Below, piece by piece: positions 6,393-61,021 of a DNA stretch of 64,000 nucleotides. This DNA comes from an uncultured Flavobacteriales bacterium. Lineage in GTDB: Bacteria; Bacteroidota; Bacteroidia; Flavobacteriales_D; Parvicellaceae. The stretch covers positions 1,342 to 65,341 of the forward strand of contig CAWUIK010000002.1 in NCBI GenBank assembly GCA_963922585.1. The letters are read 5' to 3'. The notes under the pieces were generated by a model. That model was not told the DNA's origin. It saw nothing but the letters and a program-made list of their open reading frames with translations, and made no database searches. The position numbers and the translations under genes are program-made. How positions within the stretch are numbered: the stretch's first letter is position 1; the number at the start of each line of letters is the position of its first letter.

Positions 6393-7442
6393 CTACATTT
6401 CAACCTCAAAATATACAGGAAGATGATCTGAAATGCCTCCATAATAATTTGAGCCTCCGTATGTTCTATTGGGAGTAGCATTGCCCTCTTTGTCTATATA
6501 CATCATCCAGTCTTCTTTCAGTATGACAGCCCCTGGAGTTTTCAATTTTGTTTTTAACCCATTTGTAACAATTATATTATCTAAACATCCCCATTCTCCT
6601 TTATAATTGTAAGTTCCGAAGCCTTTAATATGATTATCTAATTGAAGATTTACCAAATGCGATTCAGAATCTAATTCTTGCGCCCCCAAAACTGCATAAA
6701 TGCTATTATCAGTTGGATAATCATTCATATCTCCTACAATGATAATGTTTTGTGTTTCCCACTGAGGAATATTTTCTGAGATATGATTTTTGAGTGTTTT
6801 GGCAGCATTTTCTCTTTTATAAGAAGACGCTTCAGCCCCTCCCCTTCTTGATGACCAATGATTTACATATACGTGTAGAATATTTTTGGATTTAATAACT
6901 TCAAACTTGCAATATAAAATATCTCTCGTTCTGTAACTTTCATCATCTGCAATAGACAACAAAATGGGTTGGCTATCTAATAGTTTAAATTTAGTAGTAT
7001 TATAAAGAGCAGCCACATCTATACCTCTGGCATCTGGGCTATCAAAATGAACAATATCAAAGTAGCTGTCCTTCAACACCGTTTGTGAAACTAAGTCTTT
7101 TACTACTTCATAATTTTCAACTTCACAAAGACCAATAATGTCTGGCCCTCCAGTTTCTGAATTCATTGCATCTATCACTTTAGATAAATCTGCTAATTTT
7201 TTTATGTATTTTTCCGAATTCCACTCTGTTTCAGATGTTGGCAAAAACCACTCGTCTTCTGTTTTAGGATCATCAATGGTATCAAAAAGGTTTTCTACGT
7301 TATAAAAACCAATATTATAAGTTTGTAAATCTTGTTGAATATTTACGCTATCGTTTTTTTCAATACTAGAATTAGTAACTTCTGAAGAATTACAAGAAAT
7401 AAAAAAAAGAGATAAAAATCCAATGATGAAAAATTGTTTCAT
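6393..7442 (-). CDS. secreted endonuclease/exonuclease/phosphatase (EEP) family protein
   Basis: 349 aa with lipoprotein-type signal FFISC|N and EEP-like motifs (GLCEVEN, VNHWSSRRGG, SDHLPV). Confidence 0.75.
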   Translation of the reverse strand: MKQFFIIGFLSLFFISCNSSEVTNSSIEKNDSVNIQQDLQTYNIGFYNVENLFDTIDDPKTEDEWFLPTSETEWNSEKYIKKLADLSKVIDAMNSETGGPDIIGLCEVENYEVVKDLVSQTVLKDSYFDIVHFDSPDARGIDVAALYNTTKFKLLDSQPILLSIADDESYRTRDILYCKFEVIKSKNILHVYVNHWSSRRGGAEASSYKRENAAKTLKNHISENIPQWETQNIIIVGDMNDYPTDNSIYAVLGAQELDSESHLVNLQLDNHIKGFGTYNYKGEWGCLDNIIVTNGLKTKLKTPGAVILKEDWMMYIDKEGNATPNRTYGGSNYYGGISDHLPVYFEVEM

Positions 7443-7631: not shown

Positions 7632-8714
7632 ATGGCAGAAGAACAATTCATAGTATCCGCGAGGAAGTATAGACCCAGTCAATGGGAAAGTGTGGTAGGT
7701 CAATCCAACATCACAACGACTATGCAACACGCTATTGAAACTGGACATTTGGCGCCTGCTTATCTTTTTTGTGGACCTCGAGGTGTTGGAAAAACAACTT
7801 GTGCTAGAATTTTTGCCAAAGCAATTAACCAGTCTGAAAGTGGCAATGCAGATGAAGATTTTTCATTCAATATTTTTGAATTAGATGCGGCTTCCAACAA
7901 TTCTGTTGAAGATATAAGATCTTTAATTGACCAAGTGAGAATCCCCCCTCAAAATGGAAAATACAAAGTCTATATCATTGACGAGGTGCACATGTTGAGT
8001 TCGAATGCCTTCAATGCTTTCTTAAAAACATTGGAAGAACCACCTTCTTATGCCATTTTTGTACTTGCAACCACAGAAAAACACAAACTACTTCCTACGA
8101 TTCTTTCAAGATGTCAAATATATGATTTCAACAGAATCACGATTGCAGATATTGCAAAGCATTTGGCTTGGATATCGGAAAAGGAAGGTATAAAGGCAGA
8201 ATCTGATGCATTGCACGTAATTGCTGAAAAAGCAGATGGAGCCTTGAGAGATGCACTTTCAATCTTTGACCAAATTGTCAATTTTACAGACGGAAATATC
8301 ACTTATGATGCAGTTCTGAAGAATTTGAATATTCTAGATTATGATTTTTATTTTAAAATCACTGAATACATTCTTGCAAACAACATTCACGAAGCCCTAT
8401 TGGTTTTTGACGAAATCTTAGAAAATGGTTTTGACGGACATAACTTCATCGTTGGCTTAGGTGCACATTATAGAAATCTTTTGGTTTGTAAAGACCCAAT
8501 TACTTTAAAATTGCTTGAAGTTGGAGATAGTATTAAAACCAAATACAATGACCAATCTCAAAAAGCAAATGCAAAATTCCTAATTGATGCCCTCACCATT
8601 GTTGGTGAATGTGACGTCAATTACAAAACATCCAAAAATCAACGGCTCTTAGTTGAGTTAGCGATTATGAAGATGAGTTCTCTAACAGCGTTAGAGGGCG
8701 AAAAAAAAAACTAA
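7632..8714 (+). CDS. dnaX: DNA polymerase III subunit gamma/tau, clamp-loader portion (zero-frame, gamma-length product)
   Basis: 360 aa with Walker A GPRGVGKTT, DEVHML and SRC motifs. It ends GAA AAA AAA AAC TAA. Confidence 0.9.
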   Translation: MAEEQFIVSARKYRPSQWESVVGQSNITTTMQHAIETGHLAPAYLFCGPRGVGKTTCARIFAKAINQSESGNADEDFSFNIFELDAASNNSVEDIRSLIDQVRIPPQNGKYKVYIIDEVHMLSSNAFNAFLKTLEEPPSYAIFVLATTEKHKLLPTILSRCQIYDFNRITIADIAKHLAWISEKEGIKAESDALHVIAEKADGALRDALSIFDQIVNFTDGNITYDAVLKNLNILDYDFYFKITEYILANNIHEALLVFDEILENGFDGHNFIVGLGAHYRNLLVCKDPITLKLLEVGDSIKTKYNDQSQKANAKFLIDALTIVGECDVNYKTSKNQRLLVELAIMKMSSLTALEGEKKN

Positions 8715-9402
8715 CTCATCAGACTTTAAAATAATTTCGCCTAATATCTTCGAGAATCATATTCCTGCTCCTCCCAACGGTCAGGAAATAAAGAAAGATG
8801 TTCCCAAAGAACCTAGTCAAACAAAAATTGATAAAGTTTCTGTTTCTGAAAATCCAACTAGCGGTAGTATTTCAACAGCAGAAACTCCAACTCAAACAAA
8901 CACTAATGTAAAACCTTTAAAAGTTGCTTCTTTCGGAAAGTTTAAGTTAAAGTCAGATCTTTCGTTGTCTAAAAAAACAGAAGAACAAAAAGCCGCTGAA
9001 GAGCAAGAAGAAGATTTGAGTAAAAAGCCCAAAACACCTTTTACTCAAGAACAGTTAAATGCAAAATGGAAATCATATTGTTACTTAATTCAAAAAGAAG
9101 GAAAAGGAGGGTTATATGCCACTTTAACAAAACATCCTGTTTTGGTAAAAGATAATTTTCAGTTAGAGTTGGTCTTAGATAGCGAAATTCAAGAATTAGA
9201 GTTGAATGCTTCAAAGTCAAATTTACTCAGTTTCCTAAGGAAAGAACTTAATAATTATCAGATAGATTTGAAAACCATTATCAATGTAAATGTAAAAGAA
9301 ACGAAACATTTAACGAATAAAGATAAGTTTTTGCAAATGGCGGAGAAAAATCCTGTCCTGAATAGTTTGAGAGAGCGATTAGGGTTGGATATTGAGTATT
9401 AA
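8695..9402 (+). CDS. dnaX: tau-specific C-terminal portion of DnaX, in the +1 frame relative to 7632..8714
   Basis: The +1 frame is closed by TAG at 8692-8694 and then stays open from 8695 to 9402. It reads a P/T/S/K-rich linker followed by the 145-aa tracked ORF (TTG at 8965). Confidence 0.65.
   Translation, partial: RAKKKTNSSDFKIISPNIFENHIPAPPNGQEIKKDVPKEPSQTKIDKVSVSENPTSGSISTAETPTQTNTNVKPLKVASFGKFKLKSDLSLSKKTEEQKAAEEQEEDLSKKPKTPFTQEQLNAKWKSYCYLIQKEGKGGLYATLTKHPVLVKDNFQLELVLDSEIQELELNASKSNLLSFLRKELNNYQIDLKTIINVNVKETKHLTNKDKFLQMAEKNPVLNSLRERLGLDIEY
8701..8710. repeat. A10 homopolymer at the dnaX frame junction
   Basis: Ten consecutive A residues, flanked by G8700 and C8711. Confidence 0.95.
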
Positions 9403-9424: not shown

Positions 9425-9970
9425 TTACAAAGCGTCCTTCATATCATCATATACTCTCTCACATTCAATTGAATCAACAGCATTTCTAAAGAACCTTAGT
9501 AAGTGTAGCATCTGCGTGTGGCCTTTTGTTTTACCAATACTACTCACTATAAAAATACTTAATAAAATAACCAAAGAAAGTGGCAAAATGAACAGAAAAC
9601 TAGTAGTGCCATTGAGTTGCCATTTAACCAAAGCGAACATTGATCCAAAAAAACTCAAGACAGAAAAGCCGATGTATAACATCATAATCATTTGCCAAAC
9701 CGTTTCTTTTGGACCTATCTGACATCTAATGATACATTTATCTTCTTCTTGTTCAAAAGTTAAATTCAAAACAGGAGACCAATAGTGTTGATCTTTTTTG
9801 GGGATGCTTAATCTTATAGACCGATCATAGTGATTTCCAATAATGGTGTCGTCATTTATTTCATAAGATTTGATAAGCGCCATTACGTCCTCTTTTTTCT
9901 CGGGAGTTTGTAATTTGAAACGGGGTCGGATTTTTCCAACGGTAGATTCGTCTAATTTATTAAAAGGCAT
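9425..9970 (-). CDS. membrane protein, unknown function
   Basis: 181 aa with a soluble N-terminal half followed by two hydrophobic helices. Confidence 0.5.
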   Translation of the reverse strand: MPFNKLDESTVGKIRPRFKLQTPEKKEDVMALIKSYEINDDTIIGNHYDRSIRLSIPKKDQHYWSPVLNLTFEQEEDKCIIRCQIGPKETVWQMIMMLYIGFSVLSFFGSMFALVKWQLNGTTSFLFILPLSLVILLSIFIVSSIGKTKGHTQMLHLLRFFRNAVDSIECERVYDDMKDAL

Positions 9971-10029
9971 GTAGTAGTATTTTTTGGGAAATTAAAAAAA
10001 AATCACAAAAATCACTATAAAAAGATTAA

Positions 10030-10677
10030 TTAATCATCTTTCTTTTTAAAATCACCTTCTTTCCATGCTTTTATGAATTTGGCCCACGCAATAGGATTCA
10101 AGATATTCATAGGTGGATACTGTCCTGAGTAATACAATCGATTTTGTACCTGTTGCATTTGCCAGTTAAAGTTCATCTGACCATTCATTGGAAGCGCTTG
10201 GGCATATTCGTTCATTGCTTTATTATTGAGGTTAGCCTCGGCACGTTTTAAATCATCATTTGGAATATCTGCATTTACAAAAGCTTGAGCGAATTGTTCT
10301 TTACTAGGCCAAGGATAAATATCTGCTTGTTTCAATAAAATGGTATCTGGATCCATGATGTGAATCAAGCTGTAATTATCACCACTTATCAAAGTATCAG
10401 GAATTTGAAAATAAGACGTTTTGTATCCAACACTCGAAAATCTAATAGAATCACCCATTTTGGCAACGAAAGAGAAATAGCCAAAATAATCTGAAGTTGT
10501 TCCCGAACGAGTGCTAATATCAATGATATGTGCAAATGGAATAGGATTAATGCTATCTGTAGAAACAACTACACCATTAAACTGAATCAATCCCTCGTAG
10601 TATAAAGAGTCTTTTTGACTAAATCCTTTAAGTGAAAAAATTAATAGTATAAAAAAAAGCGTATTTTTGAGCTTCAT
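10030..10677 (-). CDS. carboxypeptidase-regulatory-like domain protein
   Basis: The signal peptide starts at an internal Met (MKLKNTLFFILLIFSLKGFSQ). FNGVVVS...PIPFAHII....GTTSD..GYFSF.....DSIRFSSVGYKT is a CarboxypepD_reg-like pattern. Confidence 0.55.
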   Translation of the reverse strand: MKLKNTLFFILLIFSLKGFSQKDSLYYEGLIQFNGVVVSTDSINPIPFAHIIDISTRSGTTSDYFGYFSFVAKMGDSIRFSSVGYKTSYFQIPDTLISGDNYSLIHIMDPDTILLKQADIYPWPSKEQFAQAFVNADIPNDDLKRAEANLNNKAMNEYAQALPMNGQMNFNWQMQQVQNRLYYSGQYPPMNILNPIAWAKFIKAWKEGDFKKKDD

Positions 10678-10756
10678 AACATTTACGATTAAGTGAATAA
10701 AAATCACGTTAATTCAAAAATACTAACAAAAACATTACCATAAAAGGATATTTATC

Positions 10757-58501: not shown

Positions 58502-58570
58502 GACTTTTAACTATTAAATTTGCCACTCGTTGTTTATACAAAACAACTTAAAACATTGAAAAACAAAACG

Positions 58571-61021
58571 ATGAGATATTTTATCTTTTTTTTACTTCCT
58601 ATTATTTGTTTTAATGCTTTCGCGCAGCAAACGTCCTCAGAACTGTATTTAGATTTAAAAAAATTAGCCTCTTTAAAGCGTGTATTGTACCTAGCAGCGC
58701 ACCCTGATGATGAAAACACAAGAGCTTTAGCCTGGCTTTCTTTGGGCGAAGAAGCAGAAACCGCCTATTTATCTTTGACCAGAGGTGATGGAGGACAGAA
58801 CCTTATTGGAGAAGAACTAGGGGCAAACCTTGGAATTTTGAGATCTCAAGAGTTATTAGCAGCACGAAGTATTGACAACGCCAAGCAGTTTTTTTCTCGC
58901 GCAGTTGACTTTGGTTATTCCAGATCTGCTGAAGAATCTTTTGAAAAATGGGAAAAAGAAGAAATTGTTTCAGATGTTGTAGGTGTGATTAGAAAATTTA
59001 AACCAGACGTTATCATCACTAGATTTCCACCAGACGAAAGAGCAGGACACGGACACCACACCGCTTCTGCTTTGCTAGCAATTGAAGCTTCAAAATTAGC
59101 TGCGGACAAAGATTTCTTACCCAATCAAATTAAAGATTTAGGGACCTGGAACACCACATCTGTTTATTGGAATACCAGTTATTGGTGGTTAAAAGATATT
59201 GAAGTTACCGCCCAAAATAATGATGAATATTTAGTTTTTGACATAGGAGATTACAATCCAACTATTGGGAAATCTTATAATGAAATTGGAACTTTAGCCA
59301 GAAGTCAGCATAAATGTCAAGGTTTTGGATCTTTGATAGAAAGAGGCGCAAAAGAGGAATATTTTCAATTCTTATCTGGCGAAAAATTAAAGAACAGTTT
59401 TTTTGAAAAATCTACCAGAACTTGGAGTAATCTTGTTTCCAAAGAACTTGAAAATGAATTTAATACACTTGTTCAAAATTTTGATTTCAAAGATGTTAGA
59501 AACAATGTAAAACCGCTTTTAAGCATTTATAAAAAATTACAAAACATCAAAGATGATTATCTAAGAGAAGAAAAATTATCACTTTGCCAAACATTGATTG
59601 TCAATTGTTTGGGATTACATATCGAACTCCATGGAGAAGATTTTAGTTTTGCATTGAATGAAGATGTAAAGTTGAACTTAGAAGCCATCAACCGTTCTAA
59701 ATCTCAAGTTTCTGTGGAGGAAATTACCATCAATGGAACTTCTTTTGTTCCTGAAAATAAAACGCTTTCATTCAATCAAATTGTAAATAACAATATTTCC
59801 ATCACAGCCAATTCGAATACATTTGCACCTTATTGGCTACAAAATCCTTATGAAAACCTTTTTGATGTCACCAATGTTTCACTAATTGGTAATCCAACTT
59901 CTAAAAATTCCATAGAGGGAATTATAAAATTAAATATTGAAGGAGTCACTTTTGAATATCCTATCAATGGGATTTACAAATGGAGTGACCCTGCTTTTGG
60001 TGAGAAAAAAAGAGATATTGTTTTTACGCCCAATATGGCAATTTCTATTGAAGAAACGGCACTTATTTCCAAAATTGGAACTGAAAAAAAAATTAAAATA
60101 AAGGTGCATAGTTTTCAAGATAATTTAAAAGAAAAAATTCATCTCAAACTTCCTCAAAATTGGGAAGCAACACCCAATGTTTTTGAGATTGATATTCAAA
60201 ACAAACACAACGAAAAGTATATAGAAGTTGTCCTAAAACCTAATTCAAATGCAGTAAATGGATCGCTGATTTTGCTAAATGCAAATCAAGATTCCATCAA
60301 ACATTTCAGAGAAATAAGTTACGATCATATTCCTACACAGACTTATTTTACAGACGACCAATTGAAATTAGTAAAAATTGACTCAAAAATCAAACAAGGA
60401 AAAATTGCTTATATCAAAGGAGTAGAAGACAAAGTGCCACAAGCAATTTCACAATTAGGATTTGATGTAAAAGCTATAGAAGTAGAAGATATAAAAACCG
60501 CTTCATTGAATGATTTTCAAACTATTGTAGTGGGAATAAGAGCTTACAATGTGAAACCAGAATTGGACTTCTTTCATCAACAATTGATGGATTATGTAAG
60601 TCAAGGAGGAAATTTGATTGTCCAATACAACACTTCCTCCAAAAGCGTAAAAGAAATGCAATTAGGCCCTTACCCTTTTGATGTTTCAAGAGGAAGAGTC
60701 ACTGAGGAAGATGCAAAAGTATCTTTTGTAAACCAAAAACATCCTATTTTGAATTTTCCCAATAAGATTGCAGAAAAAGATTTTGAAAATTGGGTGCAAG
60801 AAAGAGGATTGTACTTTGCCGACAATTGGGATGCAAAATATGAAACACTACTTTCATGGAATGATAAAGGTCAAGAATCTTTAGAAGGTGCGCTCATTGT
60901 TGCCAAACATGGCAAAGGACAATTTATTTACACTGGAATTTCATTTTTTAGACAACTTCCTGCAGGAGTAGAAGGTGCGTACAGATTATTTGCAAATATG
61001 TTGAGTTATGGAGGAAATTAA
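58571..61021 (+). CDS. PIG-L/LmbE-family deacetylase fused to a large C-terminal region
   Basis: The signal peptide starts at ATG 58571 (MRYFIFFLLPIICFNAFAQQ). AAHPDDEN and HGHHTAS zinc-site motifs are present. About 816 aa. Confidence 0.7.
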   Translation: MRYFIFFLLPIICFNAFAQQTSSELYLDLKKLASLKRVLYLAAHPDDENTRALAWLSLGEEAETAYLSLTRGDGGQNLIGEELGANLGILRSQELLAARSIDNAKQFFSRAVDFGYSRSAEESFEKWEKEEIVSDVVGVIRKFKPDVIITRFPPDERAGHGHHTASALLAIEASKLAADKDFLPNQIKDLGTWNTTSVYWNTSYWWLKDIEVTAQNNDEYLVFDIGDYNPTIGKSYNEIGTLARSQHKCQGFGSLIERGAKEEYFQFLSGEKLKNSFFEKSTRTWSNLVSKELENEFNTLVQNFDFKDVRNNVKPLLSIYKKLQNIKDDYLREEKLSLCQTLIVNCLGLHIELHGEDFSFALNEDVKLNLEAINRSKSQVSVEEITINGTSFVPENKTLSFNQIVNNNISITANSNTFAPYWLQNPYENLFDVTNVSLIGNPTSKNSIEGIIKLNIEGVTFEYPINGIYKWSDPAFGEKKRDIVFTPNMAISIEETALISKIGTEKKIKIKVHSFQDNLKEKIHLKLPQNWEATPNVFEIDIQNKHNEKYIEVVLKPNSNAVNGSLILLNANQDSIKHFREISYDHIPTQTYFTDDQLKLVKIDSKIKQGKIAYIKGVEDKVPQAISQLGFDVKAIEVEDIKTASLNDFQTIVVGIRAYNVKPELDFFHQQLMDYVSQGGNLIVQYNTSSKSVKEMQLGPYPFDVSRGRVTEEDAKVSFVNQKHPILNFPNKIAEKDFENWVQERGLYFADNWDAKYETLLSWNDKGQESLEGALIVAKHGKGQFIYTGISFFRQLPAGVEGAYRLFANMLSYGGN

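Follow-up and report, generated by a model that had tools for sequence, protein, structure and literature searches.

A conserved run of ten adenines at the gamma/tau junction of dnaX in Parvicella-like Flavobacteriales, with tau in the +1 frame, as a probable site of transcriptional slippage

In well-studied bacteria, tau is the essential form of the DnaX protein and binds both the polymerase and the helicase. This work concerns the dnaX gene in a 64,000-nucleotide (nt) stretch of DNA, hereafter the window, from an uncultured Flavobacteriales bacterium of the Parvicellaceae (contig CAWUIK010000002.1); in this gene, the frame that encodes the shorter product, gamma, closes just past a run of ten adenines (A10), while the tau-specific part is encoded in the +1 frame. 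The closest described counterparts fall into two groups. For the dnaX gene of Thermus thermophilus, slippage on a run of nine adenines (A9) is reported, in later accounts, to have been shown experimentally (Larsen et al. 2000, PNAS 97:1683, via PMC1088944 and PMC5009743). For Bacteroidetes, Chlorobi and Verrucomicrobia, the dnaX section of Antonov et al. 2013 (NAR 41:6514, PMC3711429) describes 17 dnaX genes made of two open reading frames (ORFs), all with tau in the -1 frame. Nine of these genes carry A10, including those of Flavobacterium johnsoniae, F. psychrophilum, Cytophaga hutchinsonii and Chlorobi; transcriptional realignment was proposed for them by analogy with Thermus, that section containing no experiment on these genes (PMC3711429). 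In the same source, a slippery run that feeds different frames in orthologues is treated as a criterion for transcriptional realignment, and the 2016 Atkins review repeats the two-ORF description. Outside dnaX, slippage that depends on a nascent stem-loop and leads to a 1-nt deletion is reported for an IS630-family transposase of Roseiflexus (Penno et al. 2015, PNAS 112:E1984, via PMC5009743).

The dnaX gene of the window is a real, conserved recoding site, and its two products are probably set by programmed transcriptional slippage, that is, by realignment of the nascent RNA on the A10 at 8701-8710. The zero frame, the coordinates of which were checked in the window, ends with GAA AAA AAA AAC TAA and encodes 360 amino acids (aa). 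Its product scores 387.8 bits against TIGR02397 (dnaX_nterm; cut-off 250) and 408.8 bits against PRK05563 (cut-off 400), and it matches positions 2-369 of PRK14971, the NCBIfam model of full-length Bacteroidota DnaX (614 positions), with 655 bits. By these profile matches, the zero-frame ORF is an unambiguous DnaX N-terminus. The +1-frame ORF matches positions 420-613 of the same model (E 9e-23), and in tblastn searches it matches the C-termini of in-frame relatives. Furthermore, when the two ORFs are conceptually fused, the resulting 589 aa can be aligned with DnaX proteins of 570-630 aa at 99% coverage and 50-55% identity. Judged by this homology, the +1-frame ORF is the tau-specific C-terminal region, equivalent to that of full-length DnaX; the local Pfam copy returned no family for it. 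No second dnaX-like gene was found in the 64-kb window, and an Rfam search at gathering thresholds detected two tRNAs only, with nothing at the junction.

The zero and +1 frames are jointly open over 8695-8711 only. The first start codon of any kind in the +1 frame is the TTG at 8965 (145 aa), located 254 nt past the run, and the first ATG follows at 626 nt. An earlier sequence-only reading of the window had placed the 360-aa ORF, the A10, the TAG that precedes it, the end of the +1 ORF and this TTG, and every one of these coordinates was confirmed. Its statement that unshifted decoding leads to a product of gamma length, and that tau needs the loss of one A, the gain of two or a +1 ribosomal shift, is likewise upheld.

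Conservation of the junction in the Parvicella-like clade

The clade set comprised 21 dnaX loci, the window included, taken from GTDB genomes, JGI/ENA metagenomes, NCBI and Logan assemblies. These loci were found mainly by exact-protein look-ups, as a metagenome scan gave mostly gut Bacteroides and three clade members only. In 20 of the 21 loci, exactly ten adenines are followed by one variable base and TAA or TAG, with tau in the +1 frame (74-98% protein identity), and one of these loci sits on a 1.17-Mb contig. The sole exception in the clade, L167:1434-1488 on a 2.2-kb Logan contig, has A11 and a tau ORF displaced to the -1 relation, which reflects either true polymorphism of the run length or an assembly error in the homopolymer. 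The same picture is obtained at the protein level. All close homologues (74-97% identity; Parvicella sp. or Flavobacteriales metagenome-assembled genomes, MAGs) are 359-365 aa long, full-length DnaX proteins appear in the same search only at 55% identity or less, and 35 of the 36 protein clusters of short homologues terminate with [EQ]KK[KN] right before the stop.

These data bear directly on the possibility of an artefact or of gene decay, in which the frame break would come from a sequencing error in the homopolymer, from recent conversion into a pseudogene or from phase variation of the run in the DNA. Homopolymers are error-prone, and one clade contig, L167, has A11. However, the identical A10 and frame layout recur in 20 loci that differ in sample, assembler and species-level lineage, one of them on the 1.17-Mb contig, and every clade locus has an intact, conserved downstream ORF, which remains open for 647-725 nt past the run. 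Taking into account that tau is essential in the bacteria studied, the A10 majority genotype must be viable as it is. The alignment of the clade loci shows conservation of the A-run, of the zero-frame stop that follows it at once and of the +1 frame break. Among the options that the sequence-only reading had listed, the recurrence of this combination in 19 further loci rules out a homopolymer sequencing error, which the uniform endings of the 35 clusters also contradict, and selects programmed recoding. Artefact or decay as a whole can be considered extremely improbable.

The +1 frame itself carries the marks of a translated sequence. It opens just 6 nt ahead of the run in most clade members, a conserved peptide follows the run directly (Table 1), and its third codon positions are the most variable ones across the clade (0.46 vs 0.26 and 0.28). 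This pattern of substitutions and conserved residues shows that selection acts on the +1 ORF, beginning at the run. Since the +1 frame is closed 6 nt upstream and the conserved peptide begins at the run, translation must enter the +1 frame within the run. The core of this peptide, [FW]xIIxPNF, is a short linear motif shared by the clade that opens the tau-specific linker, and it could be a protein-binding peptide.

In a genuinely split gene, gamma and the C-terminal part would be two proteins, each translated from its own start and possibly associating in trans. Such an arrangement is suggested by gene callers, which in relatives annotate the downstream piece as an ORF of its own (99-216 aa), and by the ATG present 41-62 nt past the run in some members of the clade. 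Nevertheless, the position of the first +1-frame start codon is not conserved, ranging from 38 to 410 nt past the run across the clade, and in the window the start codons are as remote as described above. The peptide conserved at the run and the closure of the frame just upstream of it are also difficult to reconcile with independent initiation, and no promoter-like or terminator-like site was found between the two pieces on the plus strand in a scan limited to the sigma-70 consensus. The split-gene option of the sequence-only reading is contradicted by the conservation of the +1 frame, which sets in at the run, ahead of the first start codon, and it is regarded as very unlikely.

Table 1. Features of the dnaX locus in the window
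Feature	Position	Strand	Remark
dnaX zero-frame ORF, gamma-length product, clamp-loader domains I-III	7632..8714	+	Pfam DNA_pol3_delta2, DNAX_ATPase_lid, DNA_pol3_gamma3
Predicted nascent-RNA hairpin, ending 1 nt before the A-run	8677..8699	+	arms 8677-8686 and 8690-8699; loop 8687-8689
TAG closing the +1 frame just 5' of the run; 5' limit of the recoding window	8692..8694	+	
+1-frame ORF, tau-specific linker and C-terminal domain	8695..9402	+	235 codons, TAA at 9400-9402
A10 run (T10 on the template strand), proposed RNA polymerase slippage site	8701..8710	+	exactly ten A
Conserved +1-frame peptide right after the run, TNSSDFKIISPNIF	8710..8751	+	clade consensus [TS]xSSx[FW]xIIxPNF
TAA stop of the zero frame, 1 nt past the run, terminating gamma	8712..8714	+	
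-1-frame TAA stop, 21 nt past the run	8732..8734	+	-1 frame reads KKKLTHQTLK
Folded C-terminal domain of tau	9031..9381	+	Pfam DUF8439 (PF28557) by precomputed annotation of homologues

Frame arrangements across Bacteroidota and the hairpin 5' of the run

In the wider set of 166 dnaX loci, a run was defined as at least nine A at the gamma/tau junction. Such a run is present in 49 loci (44 A10 and 5 A11), and the remaining ones, mostly Bacteroidales, have no junction run above A6. In each of the 49 run loci, exactly one downstream frame continues for 570-790 nt, and a stop closes each of the others within 0-24 nt. The frame that is left open varies. Sixteen loci, from several MAG lineages of Flavobacteriales and from some Cytophagales, have tau in frame 0. 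Tau lies in frame -1 in 14 loci (Marivirga, Ekhidna, Imperialibacter, Marinoscillum, Cyclobacteriaceae, a Dysgonomonas and the clade variant L167) and in frame +1 in 19, namely 18 clade loci and the independent L009. The clade members L172 and L173, which also have the +1 layout, were added later and stand outside the count of 49.

In a neighbour-joining tree built from the N-terminal domains, loci of different frame states intermingle, and the +1 state arose at least twice. L009 nests inside a frame-0 clade, with which it has both the hairpin and the A10 in common, and frame-0 genes nest among the -1 Cytophagales. The length of the A10 is constant despite the change of frame, as seen for L009 versus L004, L006 and L025; this suggests that the frame relation changes via flanking indels, the run length being held at ten. 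An alignment aimed at the indel that moved L009 from frame 0 to +1 encountered downstream sequences too divergent to resolve it. According to the sequence-only reading, uninterrupted relatives devoid of an A-run would argue against programmed recoding. Uninterrupted relatives do exist, but the nearest of them carry A10 in frame, which supports a slippage site instead of refuting it.

The frame-0 run genes (L004-L008, L011, L017, L025, L040, L051, L076 and L084-L086 with A10; L010 and L087 with A11) have the T. thermophilus layout, and they would escape frameshift-gene finders. Three other loci show interrupted or discontinuous dnaX genes with no A-run: L026 (Bacteroides finegoldii JCM 13345, AP027244.1), with a stop at codon 481 and the C-terminus in another frame; L150, with a stop at codon 367; and L036, with C-terminal matches in two frames. 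These look like assembly indels or pseudogenes and not like a slippage cassette.

The second recurrent element is the hairpin predicted immediately 5' of the run. In the window, its stem of 10 base pairs, including two G-U pairs, has a free energy of -11.5 kcal/mol (z -3.54; 1 of 200 shuffles as stable) and represents the most stable 30-nt window of the gene. Other lineages have hairpins of unrelated sequence at the same place, abutting A10. This is the case for GCUCACU-N5-7-AGUGAGC, which occurs in frame-0 and +1 Flavobacteriales (z -3.2 to -4.0), and within the clade both the hairpin arms and the encoded amino acids differ in L166 and L171. The site falls in the lowest 5% of its own gene's 30-nt windows for 9 of the 22 lineage representatives (binomial 5e-7), versus 0 of 62 for the homologous site of run-less dnaX genes (median percentile 0.47; Mann-Whitney 2e-6). 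On the 3' side, RNAalifold found no consensus structure and the 60 nt downstream of the run in the window fold with only -1.3 kcal/mol (z +0.7); folding 130 nt around the site likewise gave no unusual stability (z -1.2). The 5' hairpin may stimulate slippage.

Proposed mechanism and its context

In the proposed mechanism, RNA polymerase transcribing the A10 would generate a mixed population of transcripts. The faithful A10 mRNA would be translated into gamma, 360 aa, with termination at the TAA at 8712. The A11 and A8 mRNAs would give a gamma variant ending in ...EKKKLTHQTLK, with a 7-residue alternative tail and a length of 367 and 366 aa, respectively. Only the A9 mRNA, with one A lost, or the A12 mRNA, with two gained, would join the +1 ORF to the zero frame, resulting in tau of 589 or 590 aa. 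The predicted junction peptides are LEGEKKTNSSDFK, expected with A9 or with a +1 ribosomal shift, and LEGEKKKTNSSDFK, expected with A12 and therefore specific to an insertion in the RNA. The nascent hairpin would probably promote slippage by shortening the weak rA:dT hybrid.

Four observations lead us to infer slippage: one run serves three frame arrangements, which corresponds to the literature criterion for transcriptional realignment; the two frames that do not encode tau are closed, as is the case in T. thermophilus; the accompanying structure is found on the 5' and not on the 3' side of the run; and such runs are depleted elsewhere in the window. With regard to the last point, the window (32.6% GC) contains four overlapping A9 matches at three sites, against an expectation of 29.3 +/- 7.7, and all 100 shuffles gave higher numbers. 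Avoidance of A9 or longer runs elsewhere is expected where the polymerase slips (PMC1088944). The counts are 34 A7, 5 A8, 2 A9 and 1 A10, no T9 or longer run is present in the 64 kb, and the dnaX A10 is the longest homopolymer of the entire window. Lying within the coding sequence, it exceeds the 8-9 nt that is the minimum for a homopolymeric A or T slippage site.

The frame shift could instead take place on the ribosome. Programmed +1 (or -2) ribosomal frameshifting, in which tRNA-Lys slips by one base on the faithful A10 mRNA with formation of the junction ...EKKTNSS, would benefit from the perfect re-pairing of this tRNA anywhere in the run. A purine-rich GAGGG (8694-8698) is located upstream and loosely resembles the Shine-Dalgarno-like stimulator of the prfB +1 shift, while the runs of the -1-type relatives hold A_AAA_AAA/G heptamers like that of E. 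coli dnaX. Several features are nonetheless unfavourable to it. The stop follows AAC or AAG, whose tRNAs cannot re-pair in the +1 frame, and neither a slow codon nor a stop stands beside a slip-competent P-site codon. No 3' structure is conserved, and more generally none of the stimulators of the E. coli dnaX type is conserved at the junction. The GAGGG lies within the hairpin and is absent from the other A10 lineages, and Bacteroidota make little use of Shine-Dalgarno pairing. Moreover, a single ribosomal mechanism cannot account for the same A10 in the 0, +1 and -1 arrangements with the other frames closed. Ribosomal frameshifting is thus considered unlikely, and transcriptional slippage remains the preferred explanation.

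Some points weigh against transcriptional slippage assisted by the hairpin. The level at which the shift occurs is deduced from sequence, and a +1 ribosomal shift on the run would yield the same protein as the A9 transcript. According to the account in PMC5009743, slippage in T. thermophilus produces mainly insertions, in diminishing proportion; with such an insertion bias, the +1 arrangement would have to draw on the less frequent +2 product, unless slippage here is biased towards deletions. As for the hairpin, covariation within the clade is not significant (two pairs changed on both sides, as happened in 43 of 500 shuffles), so that its case is based on the cross-lineage recurrence and on the controls. 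The stem also overlaps conserved codons (SSLTALEG), and coding constraint could contribute to its conservation; in addition, the hairpin is weak or absent in some Cytophagales, e.g., Marivirga (z +0.4). The transcriptional level of the shift, the stimulation by the hairpin and the dominance of A9 or A12 among the slipped transcripts should all be taken as suggested by the evidence and not as observed. A broader proposal can be advanced more tentatively, with somewhat less than an even chance of being correct: the hairpin and the A10 would form an ancient, frame-independent slippage module of Bacteroidota dnaX, across which tau has moved repeatedly among the three frames while the run stayed fixed at ten, and tau synthesis in Parvicella-like bacteria would depend on a 1-nt deletion or a 2-nt insertion by RNA polymerase, promoted by a terminator-like nascent hairpin.

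The consequences concern both replication and annotation. Tau holds the replisome together, and in this clade, as in many other Bacteroidota, a faithful transcript is unable to encode it; if slippage is the true mechanism, cells would rely on a programmed "error" of the polymerase to make an essential protein. A fixed A10, with tau in any one frame and the other two closed, constitutes strong natural evidence that the production of gamma as well as tau is selected for, a point relevant to the long-standing debate on the importance of gamma. Furthermore, the 0, +1 and -1 arrangements, with and without the hairpin, represent a natural series of constructs for the direction and efficiency of slippage. 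Gene callers convert the locus into a truncated dnaX and a hypothetical protein (DUF8439), and consequently the annotation, completeness and pseudogene calls of marine Flavobacteriales are systematically wrong at dnaX.

With respect to the C-terminal domain of tau, PF28557 is annotated both for full-length DnaX proteins and for the ORFs that lie downstream in relatives. An AlphaFold model shows a small alpha/beta domain with pLDDT of about 90 over residues 41-125. A sequence search of the PDB with this domain gave no match, and Foldseek with the domain model gave no significant PDB match, leaving the tau domain without structural confirmation. The best Foldseek neighbours, all non-significant, are DciA and DnaA domain I (E 0.06-1.6; TM score up to 0.67, target-normalised). 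Both are DnaB-helicase-binding modules, and the likeness of the model to them hints at a binding partner for the C-terminal domain of tau.

As for the surroundings, an Exo_endo_phos family protein is encoded upstream of dnaX in divergent orientation (6393-7442, minus strand; syntenic in L161 and L162), and a 181-aa ORF lies downstream in convergent orientation (9425-9970, minus strand). Given these divergent and convergent neighbours, dnaX appears to be monocistronic. Apart from the dnaX run, the only coding run of at least nine A in the window is the in-frame A9 at 60084-60092 (GAA AAA AAA ATT), within an 833-aa ORF (58520-61021, plus strand) that starts with a PIG-L deacetylase domain; this A9 could likewise be prone to slippage and give truncated products. 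The other A9, at 9994-10002, occupies a short intergenic gap between the minus-strand ORFs 9425-9970 and 10030-10707.

Comparison with described recoding systems

The core phenomenon is known, and the +1 tau arrangement is new within the literature searched. In the open-access full-text literature, no description was found of the +1 arrangement, of the interconversion of three frames at constant run length or of the hairpin, nor of an in-frame, Thermus-like A10 in dnaX of Flavobacteriales or other Bacteroidota.

The nearest relatives are the two-ORF dnaX genes of Antonov et al. 2013 (PMC3711429). As characterised in the dnaX section of that paper, they likewise have A10 at the gamma/tau junction, a zero frame that ends just past the run and a tau that needs recoding. 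The polarity that the sequence-only reading had called reversed, with the short product encoded by the unshifted frame, is indeed present in the window; it is not unprecedented, however, since these A10 genes already show it with tau in the -1 frame. The difference resides in the frame, as tau in the -1 genes requires one extra A, whereas in the window it requires one A fewer or two more. A further difference is the predicted hairpin, which that section does not mention for its genes. The dnaX of the window is consequently a variant of the Antonov cluster and not a member of it, sharing the run and the immediate stop but not the -1 tau.

The dnaX gene of T. thermophilus, as recounted in the later papers, shares with the window the slippage on an A-run (shown there, inferred here) at the same position of the gene, the encoding of gamma and tau by one gene and the stops that soon follow in both non-tau frames. 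In contrast to the window, T. thermophilus has A9 with tau in the zero frame, and slippage produces gamma; here the faithful transcript encodes gamma, and the slipped ones are proposed to encode tau. The in-frame A10 relatives among the Bacteroidota are the direct counterpart of the T. thermophilus layout. In E. coli the same gene also encodes gamma and tau with a common N-terminus, but this is achieved by -1 programmed ribosomal frameshifting on an A_AAA_AAG heptamer flanked by a Shine-Dalgarno-like element on the 5' side and a stem-loop on the 3' side, tau being in the zero frame.

With regard to the hairpin, the best parallel is the Roseiflexus IS630 transposase, which in the published account has a stable hairpin right 5' of the slippage motif, yields a product that is one nucleotide short and needs slippage for the longer protein. 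There, the 5'-adjacent hairpin stimulates forward realignment with a 1-nt deletion, which is the event that would give tau here. Unlike the window, it involves a heteropolymeric T5C5 motif in a mobile element with no slippage in the absence of the hairpin, while an A10 would be expected to slip on its own.

Finally, Shigella mxiE and the fusions of insertion-sequence (IS) elements resemble the window in that a homopolymer run joins two ORFs at the RNA level, so that slippage is needed for the longer product. In insect endosymbionts, the rescue of frameshifted genes by poly(A) tracts has reportedly been described by Tamas and coworkers in 2008. These cases are regulatory, belong to mobile elements or represent the incidental rescue of decaying genes, whereas the run of the window lies in a conserved, essential replication gene.

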